Source of the DNA: a virus
Direction: 5' to 3' (one strand)
DNA length: 56,562 nucleotides
Virus record (IMG/VR): IMGVR_UViG_3300045988_087505
Span: 1-56,562 of that record
This document shows, piece after piece, positions 15,777 to 17,059 of the stretch; position 1 is the stretch's first letter; every line of letters starts with the position of its first letter. Under the pieces are notes generated by a model. The model was not told the DNA's origin, did not search any database, and was given only the letters and a program-made list of their open reading frames with translations. The translations under genes and the position numbers were made by a program.

Positions 15777-17059
15777 ATGGCAGAGAATAAACATACAATG
15801 CAAGAATTGTGCCAATGGCAGGCATTACCGCTTAATATCAAGGTTTTAATGACAGCCGAGAGAGTACGAAACTGGGTCGATGAATTTGGCGAAGACGGAG
15901 TATATCTATCATTTAGCGGTGGCAAGGATAGTACAGTTTTAGGGCACATAATCAGAGAAGTTTGTGGATATAAAAACATTCCTTTTGTGTTCGTGGATGT
16001 ACCGACACAATATCCAGAGTTAAAGGAATTTGCGAAGACATTTGATAATCTTGTGATTTTAAAACCTAAGATTTCATTTGCAGAAGTTTGTGAAAAGTAT
16101 GGTTTTCCAATGTTTTCAAAGGAAATATCAGAATGTGTTGCAGATAGTAGAAAATACATTAGAATCCTTACAGACAGACAGACAGACAGACAGACAGACA
16201 GACGATACCTTATGCCTACAGAATGGCGGATATGCTTGGCATAGACCGAAGAAAAGACAAAGAGAACGAGTTATACAAGGCATTAAAACAGGGGAATATC
16301 CCTAACACACCTATAAGAGTAAAACAGTTATGTGGCGTTAAGTGTGAACAGTTTGGAAGTATGTATGACAGGTCAAGATATATGTTTATGTTAGACGCAC
16401 CATTTGAAGTGTCAAATATGTGTTGCAAGGTAATGAAGAAATTGCCAGTACATCAATATGGAAAAGCAACAGGAAGAGTGCCTATGACAGCACAAATGGC
16501 AAGTGAAAGCAAATTAAGGACAAGTAACTGGGTTAAGAATGGCTGTAATGCTTTTAATGCTAAAAATCCAATAAGTAACCCTATGTCATTTTGGACGGAA
16601 CAAGATGTATTACTTTATATCAAAGAAAATGCAAGAGGTATGTCATCTAACGCATATTACAGAAAAGTGATGAGATATGGAAACAAAGTTGTTTACCGCA
16701 CAACAGGGGCAACAGCACTTTATCCTTTTAAAGAATGTGGAGCGATATGTTCCGTTTATGGCGAAGTAGTCACAGATTACGAAGCTATGGGGCAATGCAA
16801 AAATCAAATGTCATTTGCGGATTTTGGGATTTTTGACAACGAAAGACCATTACTGAAAACTACAGGTTGCAAAAGAACAGGTTGCGTATTATGCGGATTT
16901 GGCTGTCATTTAGAGAAAGAGCCGAATAGGTTTCAGATGTTAAAGGAAACGCACCCGAAATTTCATAATCTGCTTTATGTGTTAAAGAACAACGGTGTTA
17001 CATACGCAGAAGCCATTGACTGGGTAAATGAACACGGAAATATGAATATTAAGTATTAA
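15777..17059 (+). pseudogene. PAPS-reductase-family (PP-loop) gene split by a frameshift inside a tetranucleotide repeat. Frame A runs 15777..16244; frame B is open 16163..17059.
   Basis: SFSGGKDS PP-loop in the first part. The second part (DAPFEVSNMCCKVMKK...MASESKLR) continues the same family. Adding 4 nt or removing 8 nt in the repeat joins the two frames. Confidence 0.8.
16170..16203 (+). repeat. Perfect tetranucleotide microsatellite (ACAG)8.5
   Basis: Counted directly: acagacagacagacagacagacagacagacagac. Confidence 0.97.

Follow-up and report, generated by a model that had tools for sequence, protein, structure and literature searches.

Slippage switches are textbook devices of bacterial surface and restriction-modification genes. 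Here we describe a perfect ACAG tetranucleotide tract inside a gene for a 3′-phosphoadenosine 5′-phosphosulfate (PAPS) reductase-like protein, carried by a virus sequence of 56,562 nucleotides (IMG/VR record IMGVR_UViG_3300045988_087505, positions 1 to 56,562; "the window" below means this whole stretch), and compare it with the closest systems described. Tetranucleotide switches in the mod and hsd genes of bacteria are classical (PMC1557822, PMC7383803). The type III mod phasevarions of Haemophilus influenzae, Neisseria and Moraxella (units AGTC, AGCC and CAAC) resemble the present locus in having a perfect tetranucleotide tract within the open reading frame (ORF) of a gene of DNA-modification type, in the ON or OFF frame that results from a change in unit number, in length polymorphism among near-identical strains and in units that are specific to lineages. 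They differ in their carrier, which is the chromosome of a Gram-negative pathogen for mod and a temperate phage of gut Firmicutes here, and in the position and nature of the target, since the present tract occupies an internal loop midway through a catalytic domain and the gene is PAPS-reductase-like rather than a methyltransferase. Related phages do, however, carry an ACAG tract in C5-methyltransferase, N6-methyltransferase and HsdS genes.

In phages, the contingency loci of T2/T4 are homopolymeric A-runs of 6-9 nt, for example in agt, which were shown experimentally in these virulent coliphages in a 2025 preprint claiming to be the first report; in T2, the agt repeat switches the phage between resistance to TgvAB and resistance to McrA/BC (Gomez, Barrick & Waters, bioRxiv 2025, PMC12633550). 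The two cases are alike in that a phage repeat reversibly frameshifts, or here would do so, a DNA-modification gene, and the bet-hedging logic of states favoured by different defences is the one that we propose. Unlike the A-runs, the present element is a long tetra- or pentanucleotide array at a site conserved throughout a large temperate gut-phage family, and the case for it is comparative. The receptor-binding genes of Campylobacter phages contain hypermutable polyG tracts (Sorensen et al., Cell Rep 2021, as cited in PMC12823448), which reportedly also create phenotypic subpopulations from a phage-borne repeat but are homopolymers in tail or receptor-binding genes that affect adsorption, whereas ours is a tetranucleotide tract in an enzyme gene of the early region. 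With respect to the protein, a PAPS domain fused to Dam in a Vibrio crassostreae phage makes it resistant to the Dnd system of its host (Piel et al. 2022; preprint 10.1101/2021.05.05.442762; cited in PMC13551039). That phage and ours share a PAPS_reduct domain beside, or fused to, DNA methyltransferases; the protein tested there is a PAPS-Dam fusion for which no repeat tract was reported, and the Vibrio-phage homologues that we found, only ~26% identical over 90% of the length of the window protein, are not equated with it. In the literature we found no report of tetra- or pentanucleotide switches in PAPS-reductase or methyltransferase genes of gut phages, and the phage slippage switches that we did find there (Campylobacter phage polyG, T2/T4 A-runs) are homopolymers only. 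We rate the mechanism as familiar, the carrier and the family of genes targeted as new, and the evolutionary signature as unusually clear.

An ACAG tract within a single gene of the window

The tract and the reading frames that it separates are as follows.

16170..16203, + strand: perfect (ACAG)8.5 simple-sequence repeat, the putative slippage-prone switch element, identified by Tandem Repeats Finder (TRF) and with homologous tracts in relatives
15777..17059, + strand: whole PAPS-reductase-like gene (PP-loop ATPase, phrog_424) as a frameshifted, OFF allele; the repaired ORF has 428 or 424 aa
15777..16244, + strand: N-terminal OFF fragment of 155 aa with the PP-loop SGGKDS, in which the tract is read as TDRQTDRQTDR
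16163..17059, + strand: C-terminal reading frame, open across the tract; first ATG at 16223

A first-pass annotation of the sequence had proposed that 8.5 perfect ACAG units split one gene, that the gain of one unit or the loss of two would fuse the halves into a protein of 424-428 aa, and that the present allele is OFF. Each of these points held. TRF reports a period of 4, 8.5 copies, 100% matches and the consensus ACAG over 34 nt. The whole 56.5-kb window contains no other tetranucleotide tract of at least 14 nt, and 0.00 occurrences of (ACAG)4 (16 nt) are expected per 100 dinucleotide-preserving shuffles of the window. Translation confirms that the upstream ORF carries SFSGGKDS and stops at 16244; it ends ...ILTDRQTDRQTDRRYLMPTEWRICLA*, with 14 out-of-frame codons past the tract before the stop, and exactly this 155-aa product (P0121) is present on 6 contigs. 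The downstream ORF (16223..17059, 278 aa) lies in a frame that is open from 16163 and reads NPYRQTDRQTDRQTIPYAYRMADMLG..., and no Shine-Dalgarno sequence was seen by eye upstream of its ATG at 16223. This C-terminal frame holds the second half of the PAPS_reduct domain together with an invariant CC pair and a C-x4-C-x2-C-x3-C cluster. Since positions 3-69 of the Pfam profile PAPS_reduct (PF01507) match the first ORF and positions 72-153 the second, a single domain is divided at the tract, which makes this one gene split inside its catalytic domain. In simulated alleles, 3.5, 6.5, 9.5 and 12.5 units give a single ORF of 420, 424, 428 and 432 aa, respectively, and other unit numbers give truncation. 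From the window allele, one additional unit thus yields the 428-aa protein and two fewer the 424-aa protein; with 8.5 units, outside the 6.5 + 3k class, this allele is OFF.

The length of the tract was compared between assemblies. The window corresponds to ENA contig ERZ27293957:k119_33671 (MEGAHIT k119, 100% identity), and an identical 34-nt tract is found in a SPAdes NODE contig from another study (ERZ1745320, 99.8% identical) and in a mosaic relative that is 96% identical in the region (ERZ27252963, a MEGAHIT k141 contig). Since 34 nt is far below the k-mers of 119 and 141, and the same tract was obtained with two assemblers from three samples, its length is not an assembly artefact, the alternative that the first-pass annotation had itself named. 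Eight contigs of relatives (L039, L050, L053, L059, L061, L067, L068 and L073) begin or end within the tract, many of them at near full genome length (29-61 kb). Seven of these hold at least 55 nt of repeat, and the sample described below that was collected with (ACAG)7 adds about a dozen more such ends. We rejected the idea that they signal heterogeneity within a sample, since the assembler k-mer limit explains them: long tracts break short-read assemblies at the PAPS-like gene, and the lengths of very long tracts (at least 55 nt) may be unreliable.

Tract length, frame and gene preservation among related phages

Among 5.8 billion proteins searched there were thousands of relatives, and the best 119 full-length homologues were examined. 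All 119 (64-86% identical, 380-451 aa) are single ORFs, in line with the reading of the window locus as one frameshifted gene. At the position of the tract the best homologues carry 0-5 copies of TDRQ, some lineages having periods of the type TASQP... or NERT... instead, and homologues beyond the repeat-bearing clade align as one uninterrupted piece. Comparison at the DNA level, which is independent of gene calling, covered the best 80 of 171 IMG/VR relatives. A perfect tract of 9-69 nt (2-17 units) occupies the homologous position in 75 of these 80 loci, the unit being nearly always ACAG, with GAAC twice and CAGC once. Both halves of the gene are present in 72 loci, 37 in frame and open (ON) and 35 out of frame (OFF); with duplicates removed, 90 genes comprise 41 ON and 49 OFF. 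On identical flanks, natural alleles of 26 and 38 nt are ON and those of 30, 34, 42, 46 and 58 nt are OFF, so the frame rule is exact.

The closest pairs separate change in the tract from change in its surroundings. In 20 pairs of loci there are zero mismatches over the ~1.0-1.2 kb of gene outside the tract, and tract length differs in 18 of these pairs and the ON/OFF state in 10. One such zero-mismatch group (L010, L041, L042 and L045) has tracts of 60, 36, 40 and 12 nt, respectively. L001 and L031 match without a mismatch over 7,777 bp and differ by two ACAG units (50 nt, ON; 42 nt, OFF) and an A4/A3 indel, and the same 50-nt and 42-nt alleles recur in two human-gut metagenome contigs. A more distant clade provides a further example, in which the natural protein P0123 is the L115 protein with one TDRQ in place of six. 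Alignment of homologous phages, the check suggested by the first-pass annotation, hence finds the tract kept at the same site, highly variable in length and in both ON and OFF frames even where there are no substitutions elsewhere. By this comparison mutation is far more rapid in the tract than elsewhere in the gene, and both states are common as the majority allele of natural populations. A sample without bias as to frame came from an exact (ACAG)7 scan of 2.9 million IMG/VR contigs, which returned at least 119 stretches, 80 of which were read; here the PAPS-like gene is ON in 7 of 28 cases and OFF in 21 (9 in the +1 and 12 in the +2 frame).

The repeats of other clades converge on the same loop. 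A second homologue search, seeded by L115 (a 49%-identical member), gave 120 proteins with 45-62% identity to L115, half of which (60) have a four- or five-residue period at the same site. These periods include TDRQ, DRQT and QTDR, that is, all three frames of ACAG, as well as DRPT, KQAS, NERT, AGRQ, RAEQS and HSTAQ, and the DNA of other clades confirms perfect (AGAGC)10, (AGCAC)10, (CGAC)8 and (AAGC)6 arrays. Counting ACAG, GAAC and CAGC, the homologous loop has been filled by no fewer than seven different units, which argues for selection on mutability and not on the peptide; the conserved feature, judged from these alignments, is the site. Compound tracts were also seen, with (AGCC)n beside (ACAG)n in L114 and (CAGC)7 followed by ACAG in L051, and they look like one unit replacing another. 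In an AlphaFold2 model of the tract-less homologue P0053 (predicted local distance difference test score, pLDDT, 87.9; predicted template-modelling score 0.83), the insertion point T140|A141 falls in a loop (residues 136-144) between two helices, and the site is therefore predicted to tolerate insertions. The wider family, which has 5,591 representatives at 50% identity (1,202 with E <= 1e-30), contains such repeats in only ~6 of the top 150, so the switch is a derived feature of particular clades.

Alleles in the OFF frame retain both halves of the gene. Stop codons are absent from all 76 C-terminal and all 73 N-terminal halves, and in the C-terminal half the median ratio of nonsynonymous to synonymous substitution rates (dN/dS) is 0.10 when both alleles of a pair are ON, 0.17 when both are OFF and 0.14 when they differ in state. 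Low dN/dS and the lack of stops argue that the half downstream of the frameshift is kept by selection and thus that OFF states are short-lived on the time scale of divergence, that is, reversible. On this evidence the OFF alleles are not decaying genes, and the gene is maintained by selection.

The encoded protein, its neighbours and tracts in other modification genes

The repaired ORF scores 43.3 bits against PF01507 (gathering cut-off 22.5) and matches phrog_424, "PAPS reductase". Its PP-loop SGGKDS is nearly invariant in an alignment of 141 sequences (S45, G47 and S50 invariant; G46, K48 and D49 conserved in at least 90%), and score and motif together place the protein in the PF01507/PP-loop ATP pyrophosphatase superfamily. 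The same alignment, from a second homologue search, underlies the P0053 model; an earlier model built from 28 homologues had a pLDDT of 44 and was not used. Foldseek searches with the P0053 model gave as best PDB matches the CysH PAPS/APS (adenosine 5′-phosphosulfate) reductases 2oq2, 6vpu and 2goy, with template-modelling scores of 0.5-0.6 normalised to the target and 0.30-0.36 normalised to the query, E ~2e-4 and 14-15% identity. Among viral matches that bear a name, a COG3969-type phage protein ranks first. A sequence search of PDB was uninformative (best E-value 0.065), megablast of 15000..19600 against INPHARED phages gave no match, and the best INPHARED protein match is 39% identical.

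We considered two more specific identities. An assimilatory CysH, which would make this an auxiliary metabolic gene, was rejected because the PRK02090 profile gives 18.2 bits against a cut-off of 154 and the protein has 390-430 aa with insertions, compared with ~240 aa and an ECGLH motif for CysH. Assignment to DndC or SspD fails as well, the SspD profile matching only residues 44-93 and no match to DndC being obtained. With DndC/SspD and CysH the protein shares SGGKDS, the PAPS-reductase fold and, in our reading, CC...CxxC cysteines reminiscent of the iron-sulfur (Fe-S) site of APS reductase, but large insertions and an additional helical region at the C-terminus set it apart from them. The CC pair and the C-x4-C-x2-C-x3-C cluster, both invariant in the alignment of 141 sequences, hint at a metal-binding or Fe-S site. 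Of the traits of the anti-Dnd PAPS proteins, only the linkage to methyltransferase genes was observed. The gene probably has an anti-restriction or anti-defence function or one in DNA modification.

The window is a complete genome of siphovirus-like type. That it is temperate, as first annotated, is borne out by a large serine integrase, an anti-repressor and a superinfection-exclusion gene, and it also encodes RecT, an SbcC-like protein, terminase, portal, major head protein, tape measure and endolysin. Relatives occur in human-gut metagenomes, and a scan of genome contigs for relatives in host genomes gave only three matches (a Blautia metagenome-assembled genome, a Lachnospiraceae metagenome-assembled genome and a Lachnospira isolate with a remnant). 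The PAPS-like gene stands in a co-directional early block with genes for SSB, a GIY-YIG protein, an MT-A70 methyltransferase, a methyltransferase-like ORF, a DnaD-like protein and DnaB, in which no terminator-like site was found on the + strand before ~19860. The three neighbours named in the first-pass annotation were recovered by profile searches.

17073..17675, + strand: GIY-YIG endonuclease gene (PF01541, 26.4 bits, above threshold once extended to its real start)
17650..18222, + strand: MT-A70 family adenine DNA methyltransferase (PF05063, 69 bits; phrog_359; PADLOC MTase_II)
18782..19501, + strand: DNA-methyltransferase-like ORF (phrog_757, E 1.6e-23; no Pfam match; C5-type motifs by eye only)

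The GIY-YIG frame (17058..17675) has no ATG, GTG or TTG before 17235, though its GIY...YVG motif lies upstream of that position. An ACG at 17073, 9 nt after an AAGGAG ribosome-binding site, stands where relatives have ATG, GTG or TTG and is shared by at least 16 related loci. Such a codon may serve as a non-canonical start of very low strength and so hold the nuclease at a low level. Upstream in the same block lies a gene for a metallo-beta-lactamase-fold hydrolase (phrog_392; 12951..13703, + strand) with a weak precomputed Pfam match to Anti-Pycsar Apyc1 (PF23023), which may be a second counter-defence gene. The serine integrase gene (phrog_95; 22976..24391, + strand) directly follows the DnaB gene in the early/replication block and is not at the genome end by the lysogeny control genes. 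Elsewhere, a type II hammerhead ribozyme (Rfam RF02276; 33410..33478, - strand; 66.5 bits, gathering cut-off 37) sits among small unannotated ORFs, a tRNA-Gln gene (anticodon TTG; 36298..36370, + strand) was found by both ARAGORN and Rfam, and a weak tRNA-like match (36719..36786, + strand; 32.2 bits) lies ~350 nt downstream of it.

The (ACAG)7 scan also revealed in which other genes long tracts of this unit reside. About 40 of the 80 loci read belong to the PAPS-like family, down to 42-50% identity, 26 to C5 cytosine methyltransferases of a single family (PF00145, 161 bits) and 3 to HsdS specificity genes (PF01420); others, read by eye, lie in N6-adenine methyltransferase-like genes (NPPY motif) and in a C5-methyltransferase fragment. 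The C5-methyltransferase tract, (ACAG)7-15+, falls within the final quarter of the gene, ~76 codons short of the end, and the 22 loci with both halves are ON in 8 cases and OFF in 14. In this sample, then, ACAG tracts appear to concentrate in DNA-modification genes. The C5-methyltransferase loci include L160:164-1261, L101, L117 and L124, some of which share a genome with the PAPS-like gene (L117; L160 on the contig of L021). In the HsdS loci (L134:6409-8217, L121 and L143) three Methylase_S domains are predicted and the tract comes after the second, and a second PAPS-reductase subfamily of shorter proteins, likewise read by eye, has an ACAG tract near its N-terminus; the remaining loci of modification type are L153, L155 and L168:3461-4501.

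Two observations bear on how the tract may come to lie in different genes. The 10-11 nt on its 5′ side (ACACAATCTT[A/G]ACAG) are common to the PAPS gene of one clade (L003, L005, L010 and others) and the C5 methyltransferase (L101, L124, L160 and others), in which they are read in different frames, as NTIL-T and HNL-D, respectively, and a shorter flank, AATC(C)TT, also precedes the HsdS tracts. A cause at the protein level was discarded for the shared AATC(C)TT flank, since Ile-Leu is conserved in the PAPS family but the C5 methyltransferase uses another frame; the tract may have been exchanged between genes. In addition, P0122 (on an ENA contig of 1432 nt) consists of the N-terminal half of the window protein through ...TDRQTDRQTD followed by the C-terminus of an EcoRI-type adenine methyltransferase (PF13651). 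The two parts of this chimera join exactly at the tract, either by recombination between tract-bearing genes or by misassembly through the shared repeat.

A candidate phase switch and competing explanations

Taken together, the tract is perfect and lies within an ORF, its unit number sets the frame, it is polymorphic among near-identical genomes, and the gene shows no other lesion and evolves under purifying selection. The ACAG tract is very probably a slipped-strand contingency locus. In the mechanism that we propose, whole 4-nt units would be gained or lost during replication of phage or prophage DNA. Only 6.5 + 3k units place the PP-loop half and the Cys-rich half in a common frame. The tract of in-frame alleles is translated into a surface loop of (TDRQ)n, and other lengths stop translation 14-36 codons past it; from 8.5 units, one more would give ON and one fewer the other OFF frame. 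Hypermutability, the two classes of frame and preservation of the gene emerge from the comparison of relatives, from which we infer that switching would occur at high frequency within one phage population, so that it would keep yielding ON and OFF progeny. The ON state might supply a counter-defence or DNA-modification activity that helps against some host defences, and the OFF state might avoid its cost, or avoid a defence that senses the enzyme or its product, by the logic of T2 agt.

Several results weigh against this account. The ON fraction of 7 of 28 is close to one third, which is also expected of neutral length drift. In the prophage of Lachnospira intestinalis CLA-AA-H89B (NZ_JBBMFS010000001.1; L083:4001-4120) the PAPS-like gene is a remnant of ~40 codons, its first 34 residues joined to the last 18, and is thus dispensable for prophage maintenance in at least one prophage. 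With regard to the window strain, the 8.5-unit allele recurs unchanged in three samples, including the 96%-identical mosaic relative, so the tract is not different at every transmission. This recurrence is weak evidence for stability, since look-up through the 278-aa product detects only alleles of 8.5 ± 3k units: ON alleles give the full-length product, and the other OFF frame extends the upstream ORF past the start at 16223. An exact look-up of hypothetical 3.5-12.5-unit alleles of the window strain in a collection of 15 billion proteins found only the 8.5-unit fragment; flank-anchored pattern scans for this strain found nothing in IMG/VR, and in JGI/ENA metagenome contigs only relatives of the L001/L087 type and not the window strain. 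As to function, PADLOC matches to SspD and BrxP cover the PP-loop only and none of the Dnd partners DndA, DndD and DndE turned up among the window ORFs scanned, for which reason the protein cannot be filed as DndC or SspD.

The same ON fraction, together with that of the C5 methyltransferase (8 of 22, likewise ~1/3 and the neutral expectation), the gene deletion in L083 and the rarity of repeats in the wider family, would fit a tract that is a mere mutational hotspot in a pseudogene or a gene being lost, the ON/OFF pattern being neutral noise. We consider this unlikely, because neither set of gene halves contains a second lesion, dN/dS stays at 0.10-0.17 even between OFF alleles, perfect tracts persist across lineages that are 45-90% identical, at least seven units arose at the same loop, and similar tracts are found in methyltransferase and HsdS genes. 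Selection might instead act on the length of an in-frame (TDRQ)n linker that tunes activity or partner binding, with OFF alleles as short-lived deleterious by-products. ON alleles do hold from 0 to 6 or more TDRQ units at a loop between helices; however, OFF is the consensus in about half or more of the assemblies, clades use unrelated peptides (NERT, ASQP, DRPT, KQAS, RAEQS and HSTAQ), and all three ACAG frames serve as the ON frame in different clades, which makes linker tuning still less plausible than a hotspot.

Frameshifted alleles would not really be OFF if transcriptional slippage or ribosomal frameshifting bypassed the lesion, and long repeats can make polymerase slip. No result here supports such a bypass, which seems very improbable: OFF alleles occupy both wrong frames, so that no single programmed shift would serve them all, and no canonical slippery heptamer was seen by eye in the tract region. 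The contigs that end in long tracts do show that these defeat short-read assemblers, but that the frameshift itself is an assembly or sequencing artefact is hardly credible given the agreement between assemblers and samples at 34 nt and the many OFF alleles with tracts of at most 44 nt.

A slipped-strand switch in this gene could be part of something larger. We put forward tentatively, as a proposal with somewhat less than an even chance of being right, that a large group of temperate human-gut phages with Lachnospiraceae-type hosts possesses a phage-borne "phasevarion", in which tetra- and pentanucleotide repeats were repeatedly installed at one loop of a PAPS-reductase-like anti-defence gene and similar repeats occur in C5- and N6-methyltransferase and HsdS genes of viral contigs. 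Recombination at the repeat tracts may perhaps also carry the switch from one modification gene to another, or exchange halves between such genes. If this is true, each burst or lysogen lineage would be a combinatorial mix of DNA-modification and anti-restriction states.

The contingency locus would mean that abundant temperate phages of the human gut use long tetra- and pentanucleotide tracts of the classic Haemophilus/Neisseria type, placed specifically in DNA-modification or counter-defence genes, at a switch site whose age has allowed at least seven repeat units to arise there anew. Virome catalogues that list frameshifted "pseudogenes", or contigs broken at such tracts, would then be recording biology and not error, and the cysH "auxiliary metabolic genes" of gut phages may be phase-variable anti-defence genes. 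What phage PAPS-reductase-like proteins do is directly testable, since nature provides ON and OFF alleles in genomes that are otherwise identical. The host range of gut phages and the methylomes of their lysogens may be heterogeneous by design.

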